A program made the position numbers and the translations under genes. Below the pieces are notes generated by a model. That model was given only the letters and a program-made list of their open reading frames with translations, ran no database searches and was not told the DNA's origin. A stretch of DNA of 58,681 nt, filler included, from Sphacelaria rigidula (Eukaryota): NCBI GenBank assembly GCA_964200075.2. It is 6 parts of 6 records of this genome, joined end to end, with 100 filler letters (N's around TTAATTAATTAA, not from the genome) between each part and the next. Parts side by side here need not be neighbours in the genome. Positions count along the whole stretch, not along the records: positions 29,393 to 39,089 come from CAXNAA020007946.1; 5 more parts are not named here. One strand, given 5' to 3'. Position 1 is the stretch's first letter. The number at the start of each line of letters is the position of its first letter. Positions 5 to 49,132 of the stretch are shown here, in pieces.

Positions 5-560
5 TAGTGGGGAACTCGATCGCGGATGTGTTTTGGCCGGAGGCCCCCTCCCCCCCCCCCCCCCCCGATCTGCGTACAGATCCGTTTTAGTGACTACCAT
101 AAAAAATGGTCTATGGCTACTTCTCATGTATGAAAAAATAAACCTTGTTCAAAGTGCATTTTTGGCCCTTCTCCGTCATTCTTCCCCCGAAAATAGGGTC
201 AGGCGCATGTTGACACATTGGCATAACTTGCTCTACTCGCTGAGATCGTTGTAGAGCACCTTTGCGCTTTCCGTAGGTCACAGCCCCGTTTTTGGTCAAA
301 CTTGCACTTTCAACAACAAGCGGTCAAGTCATAAAAAAACAGGGGGGAAACTGCCATTGTTTTTATAACTTGACCGTGTGTTACTGAAAATGCAAGTTTG
401 ACCAAAAACGGGGCTGTGACCTGCGGAAAACGCAAAGGTGCTTTACAACCGTCTCAGCGAGTAGAGCAAGTCATTCCAAGGTGTAAACATCCACCTAGCT
501 CTCTTTTCGGGGGAAAAACGACGGAGAAGGGCAAAAAATGCACTTTTCAACAAGTTGTAT
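5..560 (+). mobile_element. Palindromic (foldback) DNA-transposon end, copy 1
   Basis: Arms ~145-340 and ~360-555 are inverted repeats of each other (e.g. CACAGCCCCGTTTTTGGTCAAACTTGCA vs TGCAAGTTTGACCAAAAACGGGGCTGTG). The whole block is an inverted homologue of 3110-3733 and starts with TAGTGGGGA. Confidence 0.7.
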
Positions 561-1499
561 TTTATTATACATATACTTCTTACGTAAAAAAAAATCATCA
601 AAGAAGCCGTTTTGTGATGAACCGTTCTTCAACAGATATTTTCAAGTAGCCCTTCTTACGTCACGTGGACGTTATGCAATACCAGAAAAGCAATTCTCAT
701 CGTCTTTCACGACATGTGTGGGGAAATTTCTCAAATCTAGGGCGCGTGAGAGAGAAAGCACCCTGCTGTTGTGTCGTGGTGTACGGTCCGTACTGTACTG
801 ACTGTACTGTACTGTAAGTGTTGACTGCGCAGTACTCTTTTATGCGCACCGCCTCGCTGTTCTTACCGACAGGAGAACTGACGGCTATACCTTTTCGCTG
901 CACGGTACTCGTGGTACTCAACTGTACGGACAGCACGGACAACAGCACAGTGCTGTATTGTATGTTTTGAATAGAGTACTTGCACTACGTCGTGTGTTCA
1001 GTACGGTGGTGTCTCTACCAGAATTGGGTGCATGAAGAGTAATTTGTACTGCATTGCAACTGCTGGTGGCAACACACTGCATGCACAGAGCCAAACTGCA
1101 CTAGAAATTTACTGTACTACACGGAGCGCATAATCGTATAGTGGTTATCATCGACCCCGCCCTCTGCTGCTCTAATGGGGTAAAGGGCCGCCACGCTTCT
1201 GGCGGGCGAAGACGCGGTAGTAACACGCTGACTGGCCGCGAGCAACAGCAGTGGCAACAGTGATGGCAGTCAAGCCAGCATCGGTGCTATTGTGGAGTGA
1301 AGAGGGGTGTGGCGTTGATGAGCAGCGGGATTCCAAAAGCTTGTGCGGTAACATTTTTCGATATAGCCCAAAGCGATCAGAATACCAGGATTGTCTGATA
1401 AAAAACATCAAGAACGCGTTTTCTGATGACACAAGAAGTGGGATTTTGGCCATTTATCGATAAACGTGTTTTCTTCTAGAGATTTTCACGGGAACCGCA

Positions 1500-1741
1500 G
1501 GTAAGGTACCGTACTGAGCGTATCCCCGGTATTTACCGGGGTATATCATACCATGGTATGCGTGGGTGTCGTAGGTATGAGTTTTGAATATACCTAATCG
1601 AGAAGGTACGGTAGGTATTGAAATCTCGAAATACCATGGTATCGTAGGTATCGTAGGTAATACATTTGAAAATACCCGATTGGGTCGGTATCGGTAGGGT
1701 ATGAGATGTCACAAATACCAGTACCAGGTACCTGCCTCACC
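1500..1741 (+). mobile_element. MITE-like repeat with two ~84-bp internal units
   Basis: Starts GGTAAGGTACC and ends GGTACCTGCCTCACC. Internal units read GGTATCGTAGGTA...GAAAATACCCGA...GGTAGGTAT...CGAAATAC. Homologous to 2742-3060. Confidence 0.6.
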
Positions 1742-2741
1742 CTCTATACCGTTTCCAAAACTGTCATCCGGCACTGCGGAGAAGCGTTTCAGGGCGTGTC
1801 TAAGCACTTTTTTTTCCGTTCGAAAAAATGGGGCGGTGGAAATGAATTGAGCGAAAAAAACGCTTAGTTGTGTCGAGTTGAGCCCAAGCGAATTTCCAAG
1901 CATTCGATCAAAAAAAGACGGTGAAATTCGTGGAACGGTACATGGTCACTCGTGTACAGTATAGACATTCTGTACGGTCTGCACGGTTTGCAAGCAGTGT
2001 CTCTTGAGTGCGTATGTGCGTGTTTTAGTAGAACTCTATAGAGAAACGGGCAACGTGCAGCGCAGACAGCCCAGGACTATCAGTCTTCTCTGCTTACAAT
2101 GCGACGTTAAAGGGAATCCAACAACGTGCAGCTTTGTACTGCCTGTACTGTCCATGAGCGTGTACGCAACTCAGTTGCCCACCGTGCCACGCAGTTCCGT
2201 CACTGATCCTACCACGAAAGATGCGCAAGTTTTCGCCAACAAAATATAAACAAAGCATACCCAACTGTTGAAGTGTATATATCCCTGTGGACAACTCGTA
2301 CTCGATGCTGCAGGGTTGCGGTGGTAGCTGAAAATGAGTTGAATAGAGTTAGCATGGTTATGTGAACGGGTGTTGTCTGGCGTGGTGGTCTAGAAGATAG
2401 GAGTCAAGTGCCGCTTCGTGCCTATCGACCGCATGTTCCAGATTGAAAAAGCTTAGCTTCATTGCCTTGAAGTTTTCTCCCGCGCGCCACTAGTTACAAA
2501 TTTGAGTTGAAGTCTTGTAAGAACAGACATGCTGTGGACCTATCAGATGAGAAAAACAAATCGACCACACTTCAGACTACAAAGCAATAAGTTCATTCGA
2601 ATTGATTCAAATACGAAAATCAGGGGGAATCTAGAATCAAGGTATATATTACTTGTGAAAACAAGACGTACCTGCGCCGACAACTTTTGGCCTTTGCGTA
2701 AGTGGGGACCAGCTGCTGCATCGTGGGGAGTGCATCGCGTC

Positions 2742-3060
2742 CGGTATTTACGGTGTATACCCCTGGTATTTACCGGAGTGTCCCATACCGTGGTATCGTA
2801 GGTATCGTAGGTACGACCTTTGAAAATACACGAGTGGGCGGGTACGGTAGGTATTGACCTCTCGAAATACGCTGATATCGTGGATATCGTGGATATGAGT
2901 TTTGAAAGTACCCGATCGAGCGGATACGATAGGTTTTGACATCTCGAAATACCGTGGTACCGTGGGTATCGCAGGTCTTAGTCTTGAAAATACAAGATTG
3001 GACCGACATCGGTAGGGTATGAGACGTCCAAAATACCGGTGACGGGTATCCATCTCACCT
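2742..3060 (+). mobile_element. Same MITE-like family, three ~82-84-bp internal units
   Basis: Unit ends (AAATAC) at 2870, 2952 and 3036. Shares the 5' CGGTATTTACC and 3' CTCACC sequences with 1500-1741. Confidence 0.6.
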
Positions 3061-3109
3061 ACGGTGCCTGTGGAGTTTTTTTAATACATAAGAATTACCC
3101 TACAAGAAA

Positions 3110-3733
3110 AAAAACTTGTTGAAAAGTGCATTTTTGGCCCTTCTCCATCGTTTTTCAAGAGAGCTAGGGGGATGTGGACACCTTGTAATGACTTGCTCTA
3201 CGCGCTACAACCGTTGTAGAGCACCTTTGCGTTTTCCGCAGGTCACAGCCCCGTTTTTAGCCACAGTTACATTTTCAATAACAACCGGTCAAGTTATAAA
3301 AAAAAAGGCAGTTTCCCCCATATATATTTTTAACTTGACCACTTGTTATTGAAAATGCAAGTTTGGCCAAAAACGAAACTGTGACCTGCGGAAAACGCAA
3401 AGGTGCTCTACAATGGTCTGTCTCAGCGAGTATAGTAAGTCATCTCACGGCGTCAACATGCGTCTAGCCCTATTTTCGGGGAATGACAACGGAGAAGGGC
3501 CAAAAGTGCACTTTTCAACGAAATTCATGACTTGATACATAAGAAGTAGCCTTAGACCATCTTTTATTGCGATCAACCATCTCGATTCTTCCAACATCGG
3601 GGGGGAAAAAGTCGGGCAACGCATTTTGTGGGCCCCGATTTCGACCAAATCGGGGTGACACGATCTCAAAAGTGTTTCCTGATTTTTTTTCGAAAAATTG
3701 GGGGATATCGTTCCGAGATCGTAACTCCCCCTA
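3110..3733 (-). mobile_element. Palindromic (foldback) DNA-transposon end, copy 2 (inverted relative to copy 1)
   Basis: Internal palindrome ~3115-3520 centred near 3315. The flank ATACATAAGAAGTAGCCTTAGACCAT is the reverse complement of ~105-131. Ends CTCCCCCTA at 3733. Confidence 0.7.
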
Positions 3734-4656
3734 ATTTTTAGGAAGGTGGCGTACGCGCATTGACGTTCAATGGTACGGTACGAGGCGTTTGATATTTTTC
3801 CAACCGCAGCAGAAGACAGTCTTGTGACAGCGTAGGGCGTGCCTGCCCGCGCGAGCTGCTGAGGCAGCTTGGCACGGAGTTTGACAAGCGGATAATGAGT
3901 GTTGACGCCGTCCCCTGCGGCGATGGTAATTTTTTATGCTCCACTGCGCTGCCATAGGTTTCAATATGACAAACGGCACTGCACTACTGAACTCTTCTTG
4001 TGGACTGTTTACTGTTCTCATAACACCGACTATGCCATGATGTACTATGATGCACAGTACGCAATACCACCACCGTATTATTCACCACCTCCCTGCTCTT
4101 CAGCTTCATGCATGAATACTCAATACCACAAACTCATGCAGAAAATGACTATGATTATCCGTGTAAAGAACTATTGCACAAATTTGTGATACTGTACCAT
4201 CAAGCGGTCCCCCCGACTTTGAGTTGGCGAATTTGAGTGCTCCTGGTTTCTTCAAAATCGAGGTCTCAAAAAGTCGAGATTGTCGCCATGAAAGATGGTC
4301 TAAGAAGCGGCCTGAGTACAGTGACAGTGAATGTACTGACTGTACTTGTACGAACAGAATGTCAAAATCAATAATTCCGAACCTAGCTTGACGATGGGCG
4401 CTTTTGGCGACCTGGAAGAGGGGGTCGCAGTCCATGCTCCTGTTTTTTCAATCAGCATCATGCTCACTTGAAGAATATATCTCAGCCTTACATGTTCATC
4501 AGCGCGTGCTCTAACAATCAAAACAAGAGTTTTGACAAGTTCAACACGTGTAGATTTATGCTAATATTGCCCTATGATGACTGAGGCTGGGCCGCCTAAG
4601 AAGCGGACTTTCCTTCAGCCGGTTCTAACTGACGATATATCGCGAGTTGTGCATAC

Positions 4657-9698: not shown

Positions 9699-9798
9699 NN
9701 NNNNNNNNNNNNNNNNNNNNNNNNNNNNNNNNNNNNNNNNNNTTAATTAATTAANNNNNNNNNNNNNNNNNNNNNNNNNNNNNNNNNNNNNNNNNNNN
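9699..9798. other. Artificial contig linker (N44-TTAATTAATTAA-N44)
   Basis: Identical 100-bp spacer with a six-frame stop sequence, present five times in the window. Confidence 0.98.
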
Positions 9799-19495: not shown

Positions 19496-19595
19496 NNNNN
19501 NNNNNNNNNNNNNNNNNNNNNNNNNNNNNNNNNNNNNNNTTAATTAATTAANNNNNNNNNNNNNNNNNNNNNNNNNNNNNNNNNNNNNNNNNNNN
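19496..19595. other. Artificial contig linker
   Basis: N44-TTAATTAATTAA-N44. Confidence 0.98.
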
Positions 19596-29292: not shown

Positions 29293-29392
29293 NNNNNNNN
29301 NNNNNNNNNNNNNNNNNNNNNNNNNNNNNNNNNNNNTTAATTAATTAANNNNNNNNNNNNNNNNNNNNNNNNNNNNNNNNNNNNNNNNNNNN
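29293..29392. other. Artificial contig linker
   Basis: N44-TTAATTAATTAA-N44. Confidence 0.98.
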
Positions 29393-32300
29393 ACACCCGT
29401 TCCCGCTGCCAACGACGACCTGGCGCGAAATTTCGAGCGACAAATGGCCCAAGATACCACCCCCGCTATCGTAGGATGACTCGTAAATTCAAATTTCGAT
29501 CGGCCGGGGAAGGCGCGACTCGTGAAGTCTCTATCAACTCGACCTCAGAAAACAATGTACGGGAGGTGTTACCACGGAACCCGCCGACAGTACCCCTCAA
29601 GGAAGTGGGTAACACCCCCCGTGGAATCGGGAAAGCTGCCGGTGGTAGGGCCCCGGAGGTACAAAAGTCAACTCCATCGGCCAAGGCCAAGAAAAGACGT
29701 ACACCACCCAAATCCGTCACGGGCACACCACCACAACATGCTGACGTACGTGCATCGAGGCGGAAGAGAGCCGCGGTGAACAAGCCGGAGGTTGACAGCG
29801 TATGGGGAGCGTGGCATGAACAACAGCAGGCGGCGCTGCAGCACAGAAACGGCATAAAGGAGGATCAGCTGATGGCAATACCATCTCCCGAGGAAGTGCC
29901 GATGTCCGTATCCTCATACAACTCAAGATGGGGTCCTACTCGGGGCTCACCGGGGGAGATTTCCACGCCGTCGGGACACCGTAACAAGCGACCAGGCTCA
30001 CCATACACCTCGCGACCAACTCGTGCAGGCGCGCCGGCGTCAAAATCGAAGCGGAAAACGAAGAAGGCTACATATGCTGCCGCCACTGGGGTTGACCATT
30101 GCAGAGTTGAAGGTCTCGGCAGCTCATCTTGCGCGGGTTCGGAGCAAGAGCAGGTAGCGCCGGCGCCTACGAACGGGGCTGCCCGCGAGCTAATGACGCA
30201 TCCCGACCGCGGGGCAACACCTCCCGATACTAATCGTGGTGAACATCGCGCGCGCGGTGAAAGAGAGAGATTGACGACGCGACGCAACAGTTCTCAAGGT
30301 CTCTCTGGGAATCATGGTACCTGCAGGGGGGTGCATGCTGCGCCGCCGGGCCTACCCCGGTTAGTGGAACGAGGAGGGGGAAAGGACGCAAGCGTGTTTG
30401 CAGTCGTGATGCGTATGGCATGCAGTCTCCCTTCTTCGACCACGAATGCAACACGTATTCTTCTTGCGGTCAGGTACACGACCGAGCATCGCGACTGTGC
30501 GTCGCCTGCCTTCGATCAGGGCCCGAGGAAGGCAATATCTGGCGTCATCTTGGCGCGGCGCGAATCACTGAGGCTCGGCAATTTCTGGAGTCGTGTGCGG
30601 ATGATGACGGTGTACGCCCGGTTGCGCTTGTGAAAAATATCATCCGAGTTCAGATTGCTTGTGCAGCCGGCGTGATTGTTTGTGGCGCTCCATCGATCGA
30701 CACAGGATAACGAGTACTAGACGGAAGGCAAATTCCCTTCCTCCGGTTAGCTGCACACCCGTGACTGTCGGTTTAACACCCCCCCCTTCGCCTGCCGAGC
30801 CGGTTGTTGCAGAGGTACGCCAAAACGTGATTGCGACCGTTGAGGAGGGGCGTTTAGTGGGAGTGGAGGATGTTCAATCCTGGCTGACCGAAGCCAGAAC
30901 CGCAGTGAACGCCCGGGCTGTTCTAGACAAGCGCACCAGGGAGCAAGCGCTGAGAATTGTCGATGTAGTGGCCGCGGACGGTGCAGTCGACGCCAAGCTT
31001 GAGAAGATAAGCGGGGTTGATGCGGCTGTATGCGATGGGCGACGCAAGTTTATCTATCTCGTTCCTTCGGTGGTGGCGCTCGAGGTAGCCATTGCGGCCG
31101 ACGTTCAACTTGGCAACATGCGTACGAGGGTACGAGAGTTGGAGCGCTCTGTCTCTCGCCTCACCGCCGAGATCAAGACTGGTCAGCCTATTGAACACGC
31201 ACTCCAGCGGGTGACAGCTGCCAGTTCGGAGGAGGATAAACGGGCCGTGATCATAGCGGCTGGGTCTATCGTCAGGGTGGACATTGAAAGTGCACACAAA
31301 CTGAGGAACGTATCGGGGGATAGGGACCTGAAATACGCCGCCGACATATCGAGGAAAATTAGACCCATGAACCAATTTTGTAACGGATGAAACGCCGCCG
31401 GCACTGTTGGCATTGCTGAGCAGTCTGTTCCATTTTCAAGTGTCGAGTGATGATCTGGACTTGCTTTTACCGCCAGTGGATGAAGCCAGAAGCGGTAGGC
31501 GAGGGGATTCTGTTCACGCGCCTGGCACCGCTGGGGCGGATGATGTCGACATGTCGGCGGCGCGGGATGGTGGGGCGGGTTCGATGAGCACCGCAGTCGG
31601 GTCTGGTGGTGGAACGGCGCAACACGAACACGGGGGCGCAGCTCAAGGGGGGTCGGCGATGTTCCGCGCCAGCGCAAGAACACACGGGTCGGCCGCGCGG
31701 GAAAAGGCGCTGCGCAATAAGATGAAGAAGAGGAAGAGGCGGGATGGGAGACTGTACATGCTCGTGCAAAACCTCGTCAAAACTGTTTTAGGCCGAGGTT
31801 TTCGAGCAATGCACGACTTCCATCTGGCGCAGGTGTTGATAACGCACGGCACACCCGTGGCTGTCATCGACTACGTAGCCGCCCATGGATTCTGCATGAC
31901 AGAGTCGATGCGGTAGGTACAAGCGGGAACAGTTCTACGTGAAGTGGAGGATGGACAGATATTTTATGGCCCTCGCATTACGGGTCGCTGCGATTCCTTG
32001 GGACAACTGCAATTTTCGGCCAACGACGCGTGTAACGGGGGTTGGGGCATATGTAAGTACTATAGCGGCCTCCTGCGTGGCCGTGGAGACTCTGCCTGGG
32101 CATCTATCGCTCATGCACGCGCACCGGCGGCAAGGTGATCTGGTCGCCGCGGACATCACGACGGGACCCTTCTGGCACAGGGACGGTGATCAATGGGAGC
32201 TTTTCCTCTCCGTATTCGACGATGCAGCCTTTCGTTGTGCGGTGGGGAGGATCGCAGGTGAAGGTGGCCACATCGAATTTGGGTTGGAGATCGAACTTGG

Positions 32301-32877
32301 ACAGGTGGACAGAGTCGGCAAAATTTGGGTGCTCAGTAGTTGGTCGGGATATTAGTGTCGAAAGATGGCGAGATCACGCACCTGTGCGTGGGGCGCAGTG
32401 TTGCGTCTGGCATGATAATATTTAGATCTTGGAGCTGAGCTCGCCTCAACATCAGGCTGTTTGCACTTGAGCCAGGGTTAGGGTTAGGTGATGACATAAT
32501 TTCGCTCGGACGCCGCGCACGGGTAATCCAAGTGTATTTGCTCGCACCAAGTAGGTTGGCAAGGTGCGGATTCGAAAGCCCTGGAGATGCCGTTACTGCG
32601 TTTCATAACCGGTACTGAGACTGCATCGTAAACAATTCACGAGCAAGAGACAAGGAGAAGACGAGTCTGTGGAAACATTTCAGGGAATGCACGAGTGCTT
32701 CTCCTATTTCCGATGCAAGATTAAATGTCGCGCGCAGCGGGAGGTATTCCATGGTGCGACATGCGCACCTCGCAGAGTGGCACGGATTGAAGGTGTGAGG
32801 GTGGACAAATGCCTAACGGAGTTTATACCCTACATCATCCGCGCTCGTGTGCGCTTATCCTCGACTCCCCCCACCAG

Positions 32878-35107
32878 GTGATACCGATGATGCAGAGGGA
32901 GCCGCAGGTGTTCAAGTACCTCTTCATGCAACTGGGCACCACGAAGAGTTGGTCCGACTCGAAGGCCGCGATCGACCATCTTGCCGATATACGCCGCGTG
33001 GACGAGAGGGGCGCGGCGGCGGCCTGCATGGTTGCCGGCGATGAGGAGACATTCCGCTTCATGTATCACCTGATTCGGAGTAACCCAGGCCACTATCACT
33101 AGGCCAGAATATACGTGGGTGACTGGCACCTTTTGTACCACATGGCGAAGGCCATCATGAACCGGTTTTGAGGAGCAGGGATAGAGTTCATCGCAGAGGC
33201 GCTTGGCGTGGACGGAACAAAAGCATCGGAGGCTAGCAACCATCGGATGGCACACCATACCATCAGCGTGTTCTTCGAAGCAATGTGGGGTACAATCGTG
33301 GCCATGTACTACTCCGAGCATGGCGGCGATACGGACGTGACCAACGCCGGAGCCGCGGCGAGCGATGCCTGTGAGGTGCCGGACACTGCCATAGCACCAG
33401 AATCGGATCCCGGGGAAGCATCAGCACGAGCACTTGGTGCGGCGACAACGCCACCTATGCCACCGGACGCCCCGAGAATAGTGCACCCTGCGGGACCCGT
33501 CACAGCATTACCTCTGCAGATAGACAGTATGGCAGCGCCTGCAGTCGGCGTTCATACGGAGGCACCTTCCGCGACAGTAACAACACCACGCGGTGCGGGG
33601 GTGACAGAGCATGTCGGCGCGGGTCGACAGTCGAGCGGACCGCGGGGCCTGCAGTCTCCAAGTACTGCAGTGGCTGAACTACGCAAATGTCGTGGTGAGG
33701 GTTGCACATCAGCGGCGACGCACGGAATCAGAGACATGAGAGATCCGATATTCTGCGTAATCCACGCCAGCGCAGGGCTGATAGATTTCCGCGAATATGG
33801 CACGGGGTTCCGCGAATTGTCGTCCACTACCGACAGAGGACAACCGCCCGCGCCGGACTGCGGCGGCGGCGGGGTAGGCGGCCGCGCCGACGGCAAAGCG
33901 GTGGCCGCCGATATGGGGCCATCTCCCACATTCGGCACATCACCAGTGTCGGGCGCCGGCGGCCGAATATGATCCGCCTCCAGCATGGCATCGACGGCGA
34001 CCACTACCTCAGGAGCAGCGGCGGTGGCGGCGCCCAACGTCAGCGGCGGCGAGCGCAGTGACGACCATGAACCCTTCGACAAAACCGTGGAGCAGCTGGC
34101 AGAAGAGTTTCGCGACATAGCTAACGAGGTGAAGGCGCATGAGAGGAGGGAAGACATTCCTGCCATTCGACCTTGGGTTCGGGCCCGGGCGGAAAAACAC
34201 AAGAGCTTCCGAATTTGGGAGAGCTTCGTCCTTCACTACTACCCCGCGTATATGGCATTCCGAACGGGCCTGCGCACAGGCAACTTCCTCCTTCGGCTGG
34301 CAGGGCTCCGCCGCATGGCATCCATATTCTGTATGACAGGTAAAGACCGTTACCAGTGGCTGGTCGTGCTACACCTTATGCACATGGCGCGAATGCCGGA
34401 ATCGGACCTGAAGTTCGTCGAACAGCTGATCTCGGTATCGTTACGCGACAACAGGTACTGGGCAAGGGTGGGACTTGATGTGCGGCAGGAGATGGCGAAC
34501 AGGTCCTTAAAAAGAGTCACGAACAAGAGGACGCCTACTGCACTTGAGAAACTTGCTCCAATCGCGGAATGACGGGATGTGGCGGAAGCAGCAGTGAAGG
34601 AACACTTGTTATGTGGGGAGGGTGCCGGACGGAACCGTGGAGGAGAGTCGTCTCTCAAACGTCAGCCCCCCGTAACGAAGGCGTATCAGAAGCTACACAG
34701 CACTCCTGCCTTTACGCCGGCCGGCGAAGAGGCCCTGCATGCGCTGGACGGGCGAGTGGTCAGCGGACCGTAGGCAGCGGCCAATTTGTCTTGCGCCGAG
34801 TTGTCGCAGAAGAAGCTGGAGGACAACATCGCGTGTTACGTGTTGGGCGACAAGACTAAGAAGGGGGCAACGAAGCAGAAGGTCTATACCATCCCACCAA
34901 AGAACACAACAACCACACCGACGGCGACTCAAGGCTGGAAATCGACGCTGAAGTCCAACACCAAGAACAACACCATGTACAGGCAGGAGCTGCTGACCGC
35001 TTCGAGAGGGATTGTGGGGGCGCCCGAAATTTCCCAGGAGGAGAAGGAGAGGGTACTTCTCAAGCTCGGAGGGTCTGTCCCATTCAGCATTCTCAATTCC
35101 AACGGAG
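32878..35107 (+). pseudogene. Core transposase exon of the Academ-like element (one frame, five in-frame stops)
   Basis: Acceptor CCCCCCACCAG at 32877 and donor G|GTGAG at 35108. The listed ORFs 32809, 33208, 33985, 34579 and 34786 share one frame, separated only by stops at 33100, 33169, 33970, 34570 and 34771. Confidence 0.75.
33688..33792 (+). other. EsV-1-7 cysteine-rich motif, in frame within the transposase
   Basis: CRGEGC-TSAATHGIRDMRDPIF-CVIH-ASAGLIDF = C-x4-C-x16-C-x2-H-x3-G-hydrophobic, the spacing that defines the EsV-1-7 repeat. Confidence 0.75.
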
Positions 35108-38100
35108 GTGAGAGGAATACCTCATGCTGGCCAGAGTTGCAGTGGACACAATGCCGGGAAACGAGCACGTTCACATCGCACTCGGCCGTAGGCAACTTGC
35201 AGTTTGGCTGTGTCTGACCCTGGGGATTGTTTTTACCGTCAGTATACTAGTGCCAGATGCTTTCGCACATATTTGTAGTGATCATTCCTAACGGCCATCA
35301 GATCGACACTGTTTCTACCCTCACGCACAGTCATCCTCTGCCATACCACCCCTTTTCTCTTATCACCGCACCCCCACGTTGCCTACAGGTTTAGGGCATT
35401 CCAACAAGAGCGTCGCAAATCAGTGGATACGATCCGCTTCTCCCGATGGCGAGCAACTCGACCCGTTCTACGTAGCTCAGGATCATGCCGTCGACTACGC
35501 GACGGAGGTCCACCGCGAACCTCCTCAGGCCGCGACTGAGGGCGGTTATCCAGCAGTGGAAAGCTATCATGTCGACAAGGTGCATACCGAATGGACCGAC
35601 GCCGGGACCGAGCTATTGATAGTTGCTCACGACGACCCCGATGCCGTGGGAATCATGAAAGCCCACGAGCAGCGAGGGCGGACAGGAAAGATGCGAAAGG
35701 GTCAGACGAAATTCCGTCCCACATCGACCAAGGCCCTGCCCCGCGGGTCAGGCTTCCAGAGCTGGCTGCGGGAAAACAGCAAACGGGCGAGAAACTATCT
35801 GGCTAGCGGTGTTTTCAAGCGAGTATTGGTCGAAAATCACTATGAACCTTTGATAGTGACATACGGTAGACTGCTGCCGAGATAGCCCCCCCCCCCGAAC
35901 TGGCCAAGAAAGTGCACGGAGGCGATGGTCATAAATTTATAGCTGGTTTCGTGCTGCACGACGCAACTCATTTGGGCGTTCTAGCTCATTTCGGACTGCT
36001 ACACACCTCTCATGTGAGCGGAACTGCTGCTAACGAGCCCAATAGTGGGATTGCAGCCGGTTTGTCGAATGGTCTCTGGTGCACTTTTTGTCGGGGGGCT
36101 ATCTCGGCATTAGTCGGTACTGGAATACCGCCCGCCCGAAGCGGCTCCACGCCAAGGCTTCCGGTGGAAGTAATGGGCAATGATGTTGGCGGCGGTGGCG
36201 GCGGCGGTGTTACCGTGCGAAGGAGGGGCCGCGACACCGGCGGTGATTATGACATGCGCGGTGGAACACGCCGATGCTCTTGGACGCACAGAGGGGGGTG
36301 GAGCCCAGCAGTGGGATGCGACAGTGATGATGGGCGAGCTGCCGGGGGGGGCGGTGGACACGGAAAGGGCGGTAGAGGCGTCGAGTGCGAGTGTTTACGG
36401 CGATAGTATTTCGATGGGGGCCAGCGGGTGAAATTTAGCGGCGACATCGGTTGGGGGGGAGGGGGGGGAACGGCGGTGCCGCGGGGTGGCGGCAGCTGCG
36501 GCCGGCGGAGGCGTCGATTGCAGCGATCTGGCAAGGGCGCCCCCGCGGACATATCTTGAGGTGGTGACAGGTAGGGGAACAGGTGAGGCGGCGGCGGCGC
36601 CGAGGAGGGCGCCACGCGCTGGTATCGGCGCCGACGGGGGGTCCGGACGACTCCACCTTCGTCTCTCGTGGCGTCATCGGAGAGCGGGAGCGTGGACACA
36701 GCGGCGGCAGCAGAACCAAATTCACCACGTGCTGGGGGGGGGGCACCGTTCCATTGGTGAATTGCAACCCCATCTATTGTGGTGGCATGATGGCAAGGGG
36801 CCTGACCGGAGCATCCATAGCGCAGTCGGACCCGGCATAGGTGACGGGGAGATGTCCGCAATGCACTTCATTATTCACTCCGGGACGTTTCAGAAGCATT
36901 TGAAGGAATGGCTCGTGACTTCCACTGATACTGATCAGTGCATAGTTTTCCTGTTGGCCATGTCCTGCGGGCATATCGACGTACAAGGCTCCAACGCGGT
37001 GCAGGTAACTGTCAAACGCATTATGAACGGAGGCCCCCGGTGCATACTGGTGAACAGAGTGTACAGCGCCATCGTGACTCTGAGGGACGGGAGCGAAAGT
37101 GCGTGGCCTCCCGAGGGACTGTATGATTGGCTGACTGACACATCCTGTAAACGTAGCGCTGTTCGTTTCCACCTACCTATTGGCTGGCTGCGACTTCCTG
37201 ACGCGTATTTCCGGGATCCCCTTCCCCAAAATGTGGGAATTCGTTCTGAAGGCACTGAGAACGCCGATTCTGTTCACGAAAGCGATAGTGGTGATTGACG
37301 AGGGTAAGGCGAGGGTGGAGGTGGACGAGGGTGTCAAGCTACTGGCCACGATCTTTTTCTTCAGGTACGAAAACGCATTTGCGCAAGTCGCTGCGGATCC
37401 TGGACATCTCTTCACCACGACCGGGCAGAATCTGGAGTCTTTCGTGAACAAGATTCGTCTGTGCATTGCCACAGTACATGGGCACATGCCTTCCCGGTGC
37501 TGCCCGGACTTGGAAGCCTGCCAGAAGCACGTGGATAAGGCCGACGTAGTATTGGAATACTGGGGGGGGGGGGGGCTTTGGGATGAGCAGNNNNNNNNNG
37601 CGCTCGGACAGAGGAGGGGGGTAAGGGCGGCTTTTTTTTGGGGGGGGGGGGGGGGGGGGGGGCTTTGGGATGAGCATGCCCACATTGAACTTCAACGGGC
37701 GCGGATGGGGCGTTGAACCAGAGAAAAAAACTCACCACAAGGGTGGGGTAAAGGCGGCGAGCAGAGGGGCGGTGGAGCTTACACGGGACCACATAGTTGT
37801 ATACTTGTCAAGCCACACGTATGTCGATACATCCGAGATTGTGCGAACCCTGAGATGCGCGTGCAAGCCGGAAAGGGCGGCGCGAAGACGTCACTGGTGC
37901 CGGGATTAAAGATGTTTGGGGCGTTGTAGGCTGAGCTGCGGTTGCCAGGGCCGCTGCTTTTTGCCGCCACCCCCTGACCCAGCGGCCGACGCTACTGCTA
38001 CAGGTCATTCCGCCGGAGAAAATGTCGATACGTCCCGCCGACGTCGTAAGGGGAGGGGCGGATCCACGGCGAACCGTGGAAGGGGCGGGTCAGCGGCGTT

Positions 38101-39032
38101 GCGTGGCGGGGGCAGGTAAATGGAGCGAGGAAGGCCCCGGGGGCAGGTGTTGATAGTAGTCATGGTGAGGAGTGCTGCCGACGAGATGGCGAGAGGATGG
38201 CGAGGGTAGCGGGAGAGAAATCGGATCCGGGACCAGATCCTAGCTGTCGCAGTTGTTGCGACGGCGGTCTAGATGATCCGCCAGAGGGCGGATCGAAGCA
38301 TTCAGTCGGGATCTGGCTTGGAGATTCAGATTCCGAGTGTAGCGACTCAGAGGAAGAGGATCCGGCATCGGAAGCGGGCAAAGACTACGACGACAAATTC
38401 GCGTTTCGATTGCACCTGTATCGAAAGTCGTAGACATGTTTGTTGCAGATGAGTTGCGTAGGTATATAAGTAACCGTGGGAGTTATCTTCCGCGGACGGA
38501 AGTTATAACCCGTGCGAAGGGTTGATGGGGACGTTGTCGAGTGCCTGATGCAGTGCGCCCTTGTGTGCAGACGTCTACAGCGGGTCGTCCGGCGACACCC
38601 TTGGGCGAATCGCCGGTTGTATCTCAAGATAATGTGTGATACTATAATTGTGGAACGAACGACTAATATAGCGAGAATGATGATCAAGACGCGGTGTTGC
38701 AGAAAACCTTATGGAACACTGTGCAGCACGACCACCACATGCGCGTGGACTGCAGTCGTGAGGCGGAATTCAAAGCGCTCTGCACCGCGGGCGAACCGCC
38801 ACGAATATTTGGTGTGATAACAACCGATCTTGAAAATTGAGGACAACGGTTTTCATTGGCGATGATGAGTCGGTTTATTATAATCTTCATGTATGTGGAC
38901 CCTTTAGTTCTCAATATGCCTGCATTCCTTCACGTGCCGATAGCTATCACCAATTTCTGCATGCCATACAAGATTGAAATCCGATAACCGAATTTCTGGG
39001 GTCCGATGTGTATATATATGTTCTGTTGCGAT

Positions 39033-39066
<34 letters not shown>

Positions 39067-39089
39067 GGAGGGGACAGGGAGCGCTTTTT

Positions 39090-39189
39090 NNNNNNNNNNN
39101 NNNNNNNNNNNNNNNNNNNNNNNNNNNNNNNNNTTAATTAATTAANNNNNNNNNNNNNNNNNNNNNNNNNNNNNNNNNNNNNNNNNNNN
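39090..39189. other. Artificial contig linker
   Basis: N44-TTAATTAATTAA-N44. Confidence 0.98.
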
Positions 39190-39885: not shown

Positions 39886-40270
39886 ATTGTGCTGGTCCTC
39901 CGTGAAGACGGCGACACTGTGCCCGAAGCCGTGAGCAAGTGGGCCGACGAGTCTAACTGGATGGGCGGGGATGCGGTTGTTCTTTCCGCCGACACAGCCG
40001 AGGTGGGTTCATTGGTTGCTCAGCTGCTTAGCTGGTTAGATGGCTGGTTGACTGATTATTGACGCTGCTCTTGTACTGGCAACCTTTTATCATGTAAAGG
40101 TTGGCGTGTTGTGTTGGTGGATCTCTCGTGCTCTTGCGTTTCTGTTTTCCTTTCGTCACACTTTTTCAATCTCTCGATCTCTCCCATTCTTCGAGACGAG
40201 TCCATAGTCTGAAGGAATCATCCCATGCCTCCCCGGGTACCCGCCTTGAAGTATGTGCGTGTGTTGTTGC

Positions 40271-40303
<33 letters not shown>

Positions 40304-43300
40304 CGTCGTCGTTGCTGTCGCGGTTACTGTTGCTGTTGTTGTCACACACACACACACACACAACAAGCACAAAAAGCACAAAACAAGCACACTATGCTTC
40401 CGCCCCCCTCTTCCCCCTCCTTCCCGCAAACGGCAGGTTGAACCGTTCCACAGAGTGTTCCGCAGACCATTATCCGCGCTGCGCGCAGACCCCAATCCCC
40501 TCGTCGCCCCGACAGTCCTAGCACGCGCATCCGACTCGCGCCATCCGCGCCAAAGCGAGCTGCCTCGGCAAGCGCCAGGCCTCGCGGCAACCTCAGGCTT
40601 GTCCGCAGACAACACCAGCGGCGTTGGTAGCGGTAAAGAGGGGGGGGCGGTAGCGGGGTTAGGTTGGTCCAAGCGAGGATTCACGTTCGCGGGAGGGGGA
40701 GGCGGGGGAGGCGTTTCGAAGAAGGGCGTGAGAGATGTGATGGCTAAGTTTAAAAAGGGCCGGAAGTTGGACAATAACGGGGCTTCGGACGGGGGTGGGG
40801 ATACGGCTTCGGGTATGGCGGCGTCGGTGGTCGTTATGACGGGAGGGGGCGGACCGACCAACAACGAGCCTCAGACGGTGAGGGACCTCTTTTGTGGTGG
40901 TTGGTATGCGGGTTTATGTGTGTCTACCGTTGTTCCCGTCTGTTTGTTTTTTTGCGGGTTTGCTCCGCTATACTCGTTCATCCTTGTCTTTTTTTTTACC
41001 CGTCTTGTGCTGCTGTGTTTGGGTTGTGCCGCGTATTCGCTGAGATTGAGTGTACGCCCGGCCTGCACGTTCCTCGTGTTGTGATTTCGTGGATTTTGTT
41101 GAAGGCGTTGTGTATCTATTGCATCGCCCTCCCACATTGATACTGTGGCTGTCCCCTCCATTGGCTGTTTATTTTCTCGTGCGTTTATCGTGATTGTGAC
41201 ATCATCGCCGCGCATAGGCCAATGTTTCAGGCACATACAGAGATCAAGCACAGTTGGTTTCTTCTTGTCCTGTGTAGTTTTTTTTGTTTGTTTTTTGGTG
41301 CTACTCTAGCCAGTCGCTCCGGTGGCTCAGTTGGTAACCTCGAAACGTTCTGACGGTTGGACCGTTGTCTCGAGTTTGGTTCAGTTACACGATCTGGGAT
41401 TATTTCTCACACCATGCCCAACAGTGAAGGGTGACTATATCGCGGGCGCACAAGATTCGACTTCACGTTTGATTAGGGAAAGGGACCGCTGAACCCCTCT
41501 CGCGATGAACAATAAGGCACGTGCCGCAGAAGGAAGATGGATAACGAAAAGAAAAAAAAGTGAAAAAAAACTCCTGTGTTGGCCTTCCTACTGTGACCCC
41601 GGCTTATGCGTCCACATACACCAAAAGGTGACTGGCGTCCAGAATAGATGAGATGACAACACATACAGGCACACTTGCATTTGTCGGAACGCCCTCGTCT
41701 TCGTTCGGCAACAAAAAGGTTTCAATCCAGCCTGACCTAGCCTGTACTTGAACGGGGGTCGTGCGCCATCACACGGCGAACATGCCCCAAGGACCGAGCC
41801 TTATTAGAGTAAGACAGTGCGTGCACCGCCCCAAGTTGACAGGGGGTTTTGTTGGACTCGACCCCCACATTGCCTTCAGCAAAGCTTTCCGAATACTCGA
41901 GACGCCTACCCCACATGACCGCCGGGAGGTAGTTTTGCCGAGCCTCCAGGTAATCGACACACGAACCCGCTTGCGGGATAGGCGTTGGTTGGGGTTCCCT
42001 TCTTCCTTCGAGGAAAAACAAAACAAACCGCTAACGTGCCGGTGTGCGGCTGCGCTTGGTTGTTGATGGCTCAATCTCCGGACTACCCCGAGTCTGCTTT
42101 TGATGGCGCTAGTGATATGCTGTTGGTAACAGTGTGAAGCTCTGCGTGCTCTCCGTTGGCGCTTGTGTTACGCCTGAGGGTGCACGTTTGCCCTTCACCG
42201 GAAAATTCCTCTCTTGTGGACATTTTTCATACGACACGTTCATTGTTTAGCGTGTTGGTCATGGTATCCGCGTTACCCCCGTCTTTCTGAAGATTGCTAA
42301 TCCAATAACGTGCTTTCCTTGAGACTTTCTTCGTGTTTATCCGCAGTTGTCCTGCCTTTTCGAGATATTTATCATCGGAATATGTAATATGTGGGGACAT
42401 CATGCTGCAACGGTAGACTGGCTGCAGCGGCCGCCGCATCAGCTCTCTAGTTGTATAGCATGGATCCGTGGATGCAGAGTGAAACACGCGTTGGTTGACC
42501 CTCCTGCTTCAGAGAGAGCGAGTCTATCGCTGTGAACCAGACAGCCAGCAAGGTGTCGGTCGTGGGGAAATTACCTCCCGTGAATGTTGTCTAGGGGACC
42601 GGGGCTACGGAACGCCGGAGATGTGCTCCCAGTATATTCGTCTTTATAACGTTGCTTACTTTCTCAGCAAGTAGTTCTTGTCTGCCCTTATTTTAACGGT
42701 ATCTATACGTTTAATTACTCCCGTTATTAAACTAACTTCCCCCTCCCTCCATCCCCTAGCTCCCGCACTCCTCGAGACAAGTCCTTCGTCTCGAGAAATC
42801 AAGCCATCGGTCCCACAGCACGTGGGTTTTGGTGAGTGGAGCTTTTTTTAATTGTTCGGATGTTCTCGTATGGAACTATTTCCTTCCGAACACAAGGTAC
42901 TTCGTGTCACCATTCTGGAGGCTGAGGGCCTCCGAAACGTGGCGGTGCTGAAGAAGACGGACTCGTACGTGTCTGCTCATCTTGCCACGAGGACCGAAGT
43001 CCGCGAAGGGAGAACGTCTGTAAAAAAGGTGAACCAACGGGACAGACATGCAGAGGAAGAAGGAAAGGGTGAAATATGTCGGGAACGGTGGAACACGAGA
43101 AATACGTTTCATTTTCTGTTTTTCCGGTGATTTACGGTAGTGTGTACCACGGGGGGGGAGGGGGGGGGGGTCGGTCTCTGTTGGATTGTTGGAAGATCTG
43201 GTTTGGCTCGGGGGTGAGGGGGCGAGAGGGAAATTGCTGGGGGGGGGTTTCTCATGTGCGCCGCGTACGGTGGTTTGTTCGACGGATTTTGGTGTCTCCG

Positions 43301-48885: not shown

Positions 48886-48985
48886 NNNNNNNNNNNNNNN
48901 NNNNNNNNNNNNNNNNNNNNNNNNNNNNNTTAATTAATTAANNNNNNNNNNNNNNNNNNNNNNNNNNNNNNNNNNNNNNNNNNNN
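48886..48985. other. Artificial contig linker
   Basis: N44-TTAATTAATTAA-N44. Confidence 0.98.
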
Positions 48986-49027
48986 CGAATTCACAGCGCA
49001 GATATCAGAACGATTTTTAATGTGAAG

Positions 49028-49090
<63 letters not shown>

Positions 49091-49132
49091 ACAACAACAA
49101 CAACAATGACAACGACAACGACAACAACGACA
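48986..49132 (+). repeat. Retroposon-like 3' end with a long (CAA)n tail
   Basis: CAGATATCAGAACGATTTTTAATGTGAAGA followed by ~100 bp of CAA/CGA/TGA triplets; homologous to 15628-15705. Confidence 0.7.

Follow-up and report, generated by a model that had tools for sequence, protein, structure and literature searches.

A candidate EsV-1-7 zinc-finger module in an expanded loop of a decayed, AcademX-like DNA transposase gene from the brown alga Sphacelaria rigidula

We analysed a 58,681-nucleotide stretch of Sphacelaria rigidula DNA (the window), which consists of six pieces of about 9.7 kb each, joined by spacers; adjoining pieces are not necessarily adjacent in the genome. The piece at positions 29393-39089 is filled by one gene and is bounded by N spacers, so the ends of the element to which the gene belongs lie outside it. 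The reading that we favour, with modest confidence, is that this piece represents a degraded copy of a brown-algal DNA transposon present in many copies and that a module of the EsV-1-7 type was translated within a loop of its transposase. The gene and its features given below are on the + strand.

The frame of the transposase motif GDWH (33118-33129) translates from 33685 as KCRGEGCTSAATHGIRDMRDPIFCVIHASAGLIDFRE. It holds a single EsV-1-7 cysteine-rich motif, C-x4-C-x16-C-x2-H-x3-G, at 33688-33777 (feature 33688-33792), in which the CCCH ligand spacing is exact at 33688-33765. The first-pass annotation of this DNA had placed exactly this motif in the GDWH frame, between GDWH and the WESF..FRTGLRTG region (34216-34281), and it is found there. 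It had also described the motif as in frame with the transposase; the frame is indeed shared, but it is not open, being interrupted by TAG at 33100, by TGA at 33169, 33970 and 34570, and by a stop at 34771. The hmmscan run proposed at that stage gave a match of the Pfam model PF19114 (EsV_1_7_cys) to the uninterrupted open reading frame (ORF) at 33172-33969, with an E value of 8.7e-6 and 25.9 bits against a gathering cut-off of 25 bits; the match covers profile positions 1-33 of 35 and its envelope ends at about 33786. We regard it as real but borderline, at the threshold. No Pfam family matched the other frames or the opposite strand of the segment. The strict motif pattern occurred in none of 300 block-shuffled windows, and a relaxed pattern, C-x4-C-x14-18-C-x2-H, in 65 of 300. 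When a 51-residue part was used in a language-model feature search of the ESM Atlas, 30 of 30 neighbours lay in EsV-1-7 clusters, the top one at 0.91 with 191 shared features. The motif is treated here as a putative zinc finger, whose four ligands may, as a proposal, bind zinc.

The motif lies within an expanded Ala/Pro/Gly-rich linker of about 269 codons (807 bp) at 33319-34125, which a query-anchored alignment places in frame with both flanks. This segment sits between ...AMYYSE and the block ...VKAHERREDIPAIRPWV and is absent from the related proteins P0002, P0004 and P0006. The combined fraction of alanine, proline and glycine is 0.43 and 0.38 in the linkers on the two sides of the motif and 0.22 and 0.17 in conserved blocks, which bears out the Ala/Pro/Gly-rich flanks first noted there. 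At the same site, other lineages have a short, variable and often Ala/Pro-rich linker in uninterrupted ORFs (P0006, P0014, P0016, P0019 and P0115), its length by eye ranging from about 20 residues (P0006) up to about 60 (P0115), and the equivalent loop (residues 265-292) is disordered in the structural model of P0016. From the short coding linker elsewhere and the disorder in this model we conclude that the segment represents a permissive loop, between the second-Asp and Glu blocks of the transposase, that has become expanded. The left edge of the linker is also the neighbourhood of a sequence break: the most abundant contig of run X6 tracks the window to 33309 and then passes into unrelated sequence with CCCTAA-like units. 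The variant that breaks at 33309 accounts for how the Sphacelaria rigidula protein P0003 ends (...MYDP-stop), and the break is at most 9 bases from the linker start.

The segment has a 3-base periodicity with a chi2 of 49.9, compared with 42.1 and 46.6 for the exon blocks, values that none of 1000 shuffles attained; no such periodicity is seen in intron 1 of the same gene (chi2 1.2, p 0.98). No tandem repeats that could be its source were found in the segment. There is no GT...AG in the window at the boundaries implied by P0002, and among the indel variants listed within the segment there is only one, which removes 6 letters in total. Sibling copies were compared by query-anchored BLASTP of 14 fetched ORFs with matches in the segment. 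All 14 were collinear with the window frame, at 37-64% identity and with gaps of whole codons; six crossed the left junction and five the right. Four sibling ORFs (P0018, P0148, P0100 and P0108) cover the motif site, and P0018 retains the four ligands (CRGEGC-x16-CVFH) and continues into the conserved block. Contigs of three further runs cover 33543-33960 at 93-98% identity. A search for the DNA of sibling copies, meant for the ratio of nonsynonymous to synonymous substitution (dN/dS), found no relative in the scanned metagenome and viral contigs. Together, the collinear, in-frame siblings and the four ligands of P0018 point to a sublineage ancestor that carried the motif at the same place. 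The comparison shows the module and its linkers to have been part of the reading frame of elements ancestral to the present copies, and we regard it as fairly likely that the segment is coding.

Several observations weigh against this reading. The PF19114 score falls to 23.8 bits, just below the cut-off of 25, within the 594-residue read-through, and P0018, the intact sibling, has no match to the model even at E<=5. Retention of the motif in sibling elements, the check put forward with the first-pass annotation, held for the segment, which has the same position and frame in 14 of 14 ORFs, but not for the ligands, all of which are kept in only one of the four siblings at the motif: in P0100 and P0108 two ligands each are replaced by Arg or Gly, and the alignment of P0148 stops after the first two Cys, both of which are retained. 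Among 170 family proteins, CCCH spacing is found in P0018 only. The siblings come from a protein search, which is blind to frame-broken copies. In P0002, an annotated protein of Sphacelaria rigidula, PDKVKIH follows immediately after MYYSE, the segment being missing or spliced from the gene model, and the GC-rich region has long ORFs in several frames, for example one of 226 codons on the minus strand. As to the presence of the segment in mature mRNA, none of the records listed over 32800-34600 is marked as RNA, and run X6 is ambiguous: its contigs give very little cover over 33402-34325 with no joint across, its RNA label is a guess and contig depth is not a measure, and it was counted neither for nor against inclusion in the mRNA. 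Finally, the literature searched yielded no demonstrated biochemical activity of any EsV-1-7 domain.

The segment could instead be a non-coding intron or spacer that is removed from the mRNA, and the motif would be a piece of host gene carried along without ever having been part of the transposase. The P0002 gene model does skip the segment, the gene has genuine spliced GT-AG introns, and GC-rich sequence of this kind yields long ORFs in several frames, such as that of 226 codons. Nevertheless, GT...AG is lacking at the boundaries which that model implies, the strong periodicity of the segment is unlike intron 1, and the segment is in phase with both flanks in the 11 junction-crossing sibling ORFs. 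A shorter linker is coding at the same site in single uninterrupted ORFs of other lineages, and among the joints listed for four runs none spans the segment. We consider this explanation unlikely, while leaving it some weight.

A chance spacing of Cys and His in a low-complexity, GC-rich stretch, unrelated to EsV-1-7 by descent, would fit a score at the Pfam threshold, a sibling (P0018) below it, and the relaxed spacing in 65 of 300 shuffles. It accords poorly with a match at E 8.7e-6 over 33 of 35 profile positions, with the absence of the strict pattern from all 300 shuffles, with 30 of 30 Atlas neighbours in EsV-1-7 clusters, and with a host group that has 31 to 335 EsV-1-7 members per genome according to the available text of the Phaeoexplorer preprint (10.1101/2024.02.19.579948); we judge it very improbable. 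It is harder still to believe that an EsV-1-7 fragment, derived from a gene of the host or from a different mobile element, inserted into this single copy after it had landed and came to be in frame by luck. The same copy did take a later nested insertion at 35869-36115, and the segment is missing in P0002, P0004 and P0006, but 14 ORFs from other contigs have homologous pieces with the same flanks at 37-64% identity, the contigs of three further runs cover 33543-33960 at 93-98%, and no Pfam family matches the segment's other frames or strand. The reading as a single nested insertion is ruled out by the sibling copies.

The gene that carries the expanded linker resembles other predicted proteins of the same alga. 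Its best named relatives are the Sphacelaria rigidula 'unnamed protein products' P0002 (76%) and P0003 (82%); an exhaustive HMMER search gave 342 relatives, of which 150 were listed, and the homolog search yielded no proteins of greater length. An upstream conserved transposase part (31551-32304) has the first-Asp candidate WDNCN at 31999-32013 and a frameshift at 31913/31915. It is followed by intron 1 (32305-32877, CAG/GT...AG/GT), which is a gap in the tblastn alignments of P0002 and P0003 and in which the frame is full of stops; X6 contigs join about 32254-32276 to 32875-32881 with GT..AG ends. The next transposase block (32878-33318) is 81-88% identical to P0002 and P0003 and has the second-Asp candidate GDEETF at 33037-33054, then GDWH, with the stops at 33100 and 33169. 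Beyond the linker, the downstream transposase block (34126-35107) contains WESF (34216-34227), FRTGLRTG (34258-34281) and LDVRQEM (34474-34494) together with the stops at 34570 and 34771, and matches P0002 by tblastn at 74% over 360 residues. Intron 2 (35108-35388, GT...AG) was placed from X6 contigs, visible splice sites and a change of frame in tblastn; an X6 loose end beyond 35109 carries the letters of 35391-35402. As X6 contigs lack introns 1 and 2, the family is so far taken to be transcribed and spliced somewhere in the organism, with the RNA label of that run itself a guess.

Across the family, the consensus blocks are WDN.D, V.GD..TY...PGDWH and LDE.HEM..NK, the last including the candidate Glu block LDE..EM. 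The longer of the relatives match the Pfam family DUF6589 (PF20231), whose gathering cut-off is 27 bits. The window read-through, P0001, did not match it at E<=0.01, and P0002 scored 23.4 bits, but homologs found with P0001 reached 33 bits (P0004), 66.1 (P0013), 50.5 (P0115), 46.1 (P0132) and 46.6 (P0139); the window gene is assigned to DUF6589 by transitive homology. An AlphaFold model was made for the homolog P0016 (about 34% identity to the window blocks) from a 48-sequence alignment (predicted local distance difference test, pLDDT, 82.6; predicted template modelling score, pTM, 0.84). Foldseek gave no match to this transposase model at E<=0.001. A comparison with 48,161 representative chains ranked the P element transposase first (Z 8.5, root-mean-square deviation 5.4, 270 residues aligned); behind it, retroviral integrase cores scored Z 7-7.9, Hermes reached Z 7.0 over 250 aligned residues, and Tn5, Mu, TnsB, Mos1 and RAG1 ranked lower. 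The tool itself rates Z values of 7-8 as middling. Of the 50 highest-ranking rows, about three quarters were DDE (Asp-Asp-Glu) transposases, integrases and other RNase H-like nucleases such as Argonautes. The modelled core appears to have an RNase H-like fold with an alpha-helical insertion domain and is taken to be a DDE transposase; the fold of P0016 upholds the earlier identification of the host gene as a DNA transposase.

Downstream of intron 2, the same protein is predicted to contain a 5' nuclease domain of the FEN/XPG/XRN type at 35389-37326, where residues 390-804 of P0155 map to 35388-37326. Two lesions disrupt this domain in the window: an element nested at 35869-36115 and a frameshift near 37150-37199. 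The Ectocarpus gene models P0155 and P0157 unite transposase and nuclease in one protein, and the window matches both parts. A model of the homolog P0169, good in its core only (pLDDT 65-90, overall 55), matched Xrn1 (Z 13.7), EXO1 (12.5), FEN-1 (10.8), GEN1 (10.5), XPG (10.2) and T5 exonuclease (9.4); its first 17 structure-match rows were 5' nucleases, and the 13 Foldseek matches at E<=1e-3 were all XRN1/XRN2/Rat1. By sequence there was no match to Pfam XPG models or to the PDB, the domain being seen by fold comparison only. On these models, we interpret the nuclease part as a FEN/XPG/XRN-type 5' nuclease. They also suggest a function for DUF6589, which Pfam lists without one: that of a DDE transposase with a fused 5' nuclease. 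Proteomes of Ectocarpus, Pylaiella and Sphacelaria all contain members of the family.

A DDE transposase and an XPG-type nuclease in one element make up the AcademX layout, as described in the available text of PMC10045372. The Academ label given to this element in the first-pass annotation fits that layout, but it rests on architecture, and the fold is not superfamily-specific; an Academ/AcademX assignment is plausible from architecture alone. In the available text of PMC12477816, the curated table of Ectocarpus transposable elements (Table 1) has no Academ entry, and Ectocarpus members of the family may sit under 'DNA/Unknown' or be annotated as genes. Gene models with DUF6589 plus a 5' nuclease were abundant among the matches in Ectocarpus (11 of 17) and also found in Pylaiella (2 of 17), and the homologs P0155, P0157-P0173 and P0013 come from Ectocarpus sp. 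CCAP 1310/34, Ectocarpus sp. 12 and Pylaiella littoralis. Other modules occur in the family: P0130 has an OTU cysteine protease (30.7 bits), and P0139 (with a weak match to Pfam TCR), P0169 and P0170 end in Cys-rich tails of the Tesmin/TSO1-like CXC type. The window seems to retain a degraded version of such a tail at 37625-37909.

The window copy is dead, a pseudogene unable to make protein, because of the five in-frame stops, the frameshifts and a nested miniature inverted-repeat transposable element (MITE). The stops at 33100 and 33169 correspond to Trp in siblings, and the TGA within the linker (33970-33972) is private to the window copy, being Gly in four of four aligned siblings (P0018, P0100, P0045 and P0123). 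At the frameshift at 31913/31915 the tblastn alignments of P0003 and P0002 switch frame; sibling contigs are without it and omit 4 letters at 31912. The second frameshift is that near 37150-37199. The family LDE is LDV in the window copy (LDVRQEM). AcademX elements have target-site duplications of 3-4 bp and terminal inverted repeats. The nested MITE-like element (247 bp, 35869-36115) has 23-nt terminal inverted repeats (GACTGCTGCCGAGATAGCCCCCC) with GGTA on both sides; word depth in the contigs increases by a factor of about 100 from 35866 on, and the site is empty in sibling contigs. Since a 4-bp duplication falls within the AcademX range, this element might be a non-autonomous relative. Over 4.6 kb there were 140 to 4040 contig pieces per run, which indicates that the element is multi-copy.

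In the explanation that we favour, the intact element would have encoded one long protein in the AcademX layout, with a DDE transposase (DUF6589), a FEN/XPG/XRN-type 5' nuclease and a Cys-rich tail. The disordered loop between the second-Asp block (GDEETF, GDWH) and the LDE..EM block varies from about 20 to 60 residues across the family, and in one sublineage it would have grown to about 270 residues and taken up one EsV-1-7 CCCH module. The module would then have been translated as part of the transposase. It would most likely be a small zinc-bound interaction unit on a flexible tether, contacting DNA, chromatin or a host protein, and such contact could influence targeting or regulation of the element.

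Academ elements have been reported from animals, fungi and a red alga; to our knowledge they have not been reported from brown algae. DNA-binding domains of transposases are usually N-terminal. The first-pass annotation knew of no earlier description of such a fusion, which proved too strong a statement: according to the available text of PMC12477816, TcMar-2_Ec32, an Ectocarpus Tc1/Mariner transposase, acquired an N-terminal EsV-1-7 domain. Like the window element, TcMar-2_Ec32 is a brown-algal cut-and-paste DDE transposase with an acquired EsV-1-7 motif, which its authors likewise see as a possible zinc finger (PMC12477816). The two differ in superfamily (Tc1/Mariner versus DUF6589/AcademX-like), in the position of the domain (N-terminal versus internal, in the loop that separates the second Asp from the Glu block) and in state: TcMar-2_Ec32 is described there as intact and active-looking, whereas the window copy is dead, and their host algae belong to different orders. 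AcademX elements share with the window element the DDE transposase and XPG-type nuclease in one element (PMC10045372); an EsV-1-7 module on Academ is not reported in the literature searched. A fusion of EsV-1-7 with an Academ/DUF6589 transposase was likewise not found in that literature, the supplements of which may hold more. A fusion of this kind is known, and the novelty lies in the superfamily, in the internal position of the module and in the host lineage.

The EsV-1-7 proteins of brown algae and phaeoviruses, including IMMEDIATE UPRIGHT (IMM) and the EsV-1-7 gene (available text of PMC7457493), have the same CCCH spacing and match PF19114. IMM has five repeats (10.1101/2024.02.19.579948, available text), and these proteins are cellular or viral, whereas the window gene has a single motif in a transposase loop. 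The P element, hAT (Hermes) and RAG1 transposases resemble the modelled window family in having an RNase H-like core with a large insertion between the second Asp and Glu. This likeness is at the level of fold only (Z 8.5, 7.0 and 4.9; 8-11% identity), and the three are without an EsV-1-7 module and without a fused 5' nuclease.

Few gene families have expanded as much in brown algae as EsV-1-7, to which the developmental regulator IMM belongs. While collecting EsV-1-7 proteins, the authors of the Phaeoexplorer preprint excluded one large orthogroup, OG0000001, as transposon sequence (10.1101/2024.02.19.579948, available text); this hints at further transposon-borne copies. Transposases have to locate DNA or chromatin, so an independent second fusion, to a transposase of another superfamily, would strengthen the view of the module as a binder of nucleic acid or chromatin; the fusion also lends itself to a simple assay of the module on the ends of its own element. 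A wider proposition seems to us distinctly unlikely, namely that unrelated brown-algal transposases captured EsV-1-7 independently, that the module is a portable DNA or chromatin binder, and that transposon copies aided its expansion and its patchy spread among algae and giant viruses. The importance of the fusion is further tempered in that its type is already in print, that the window copy is dead, and that we infer both the translation and the function of the motif.

The spacers between the pieces (9699-9798, 19496-19595, 29293-29392, 39090-39189 and 48886-48985) have the form N44-TTAATTAATTAA-N44, with a stop in each of the six reading frames. Microsatellite-like runs of the Cys codons TGC and TGT in other pieces, at 40268-40345 (+ strand) and 49022-49099 (- strand) of the window, give spurious matches to the Cys/His pattern.

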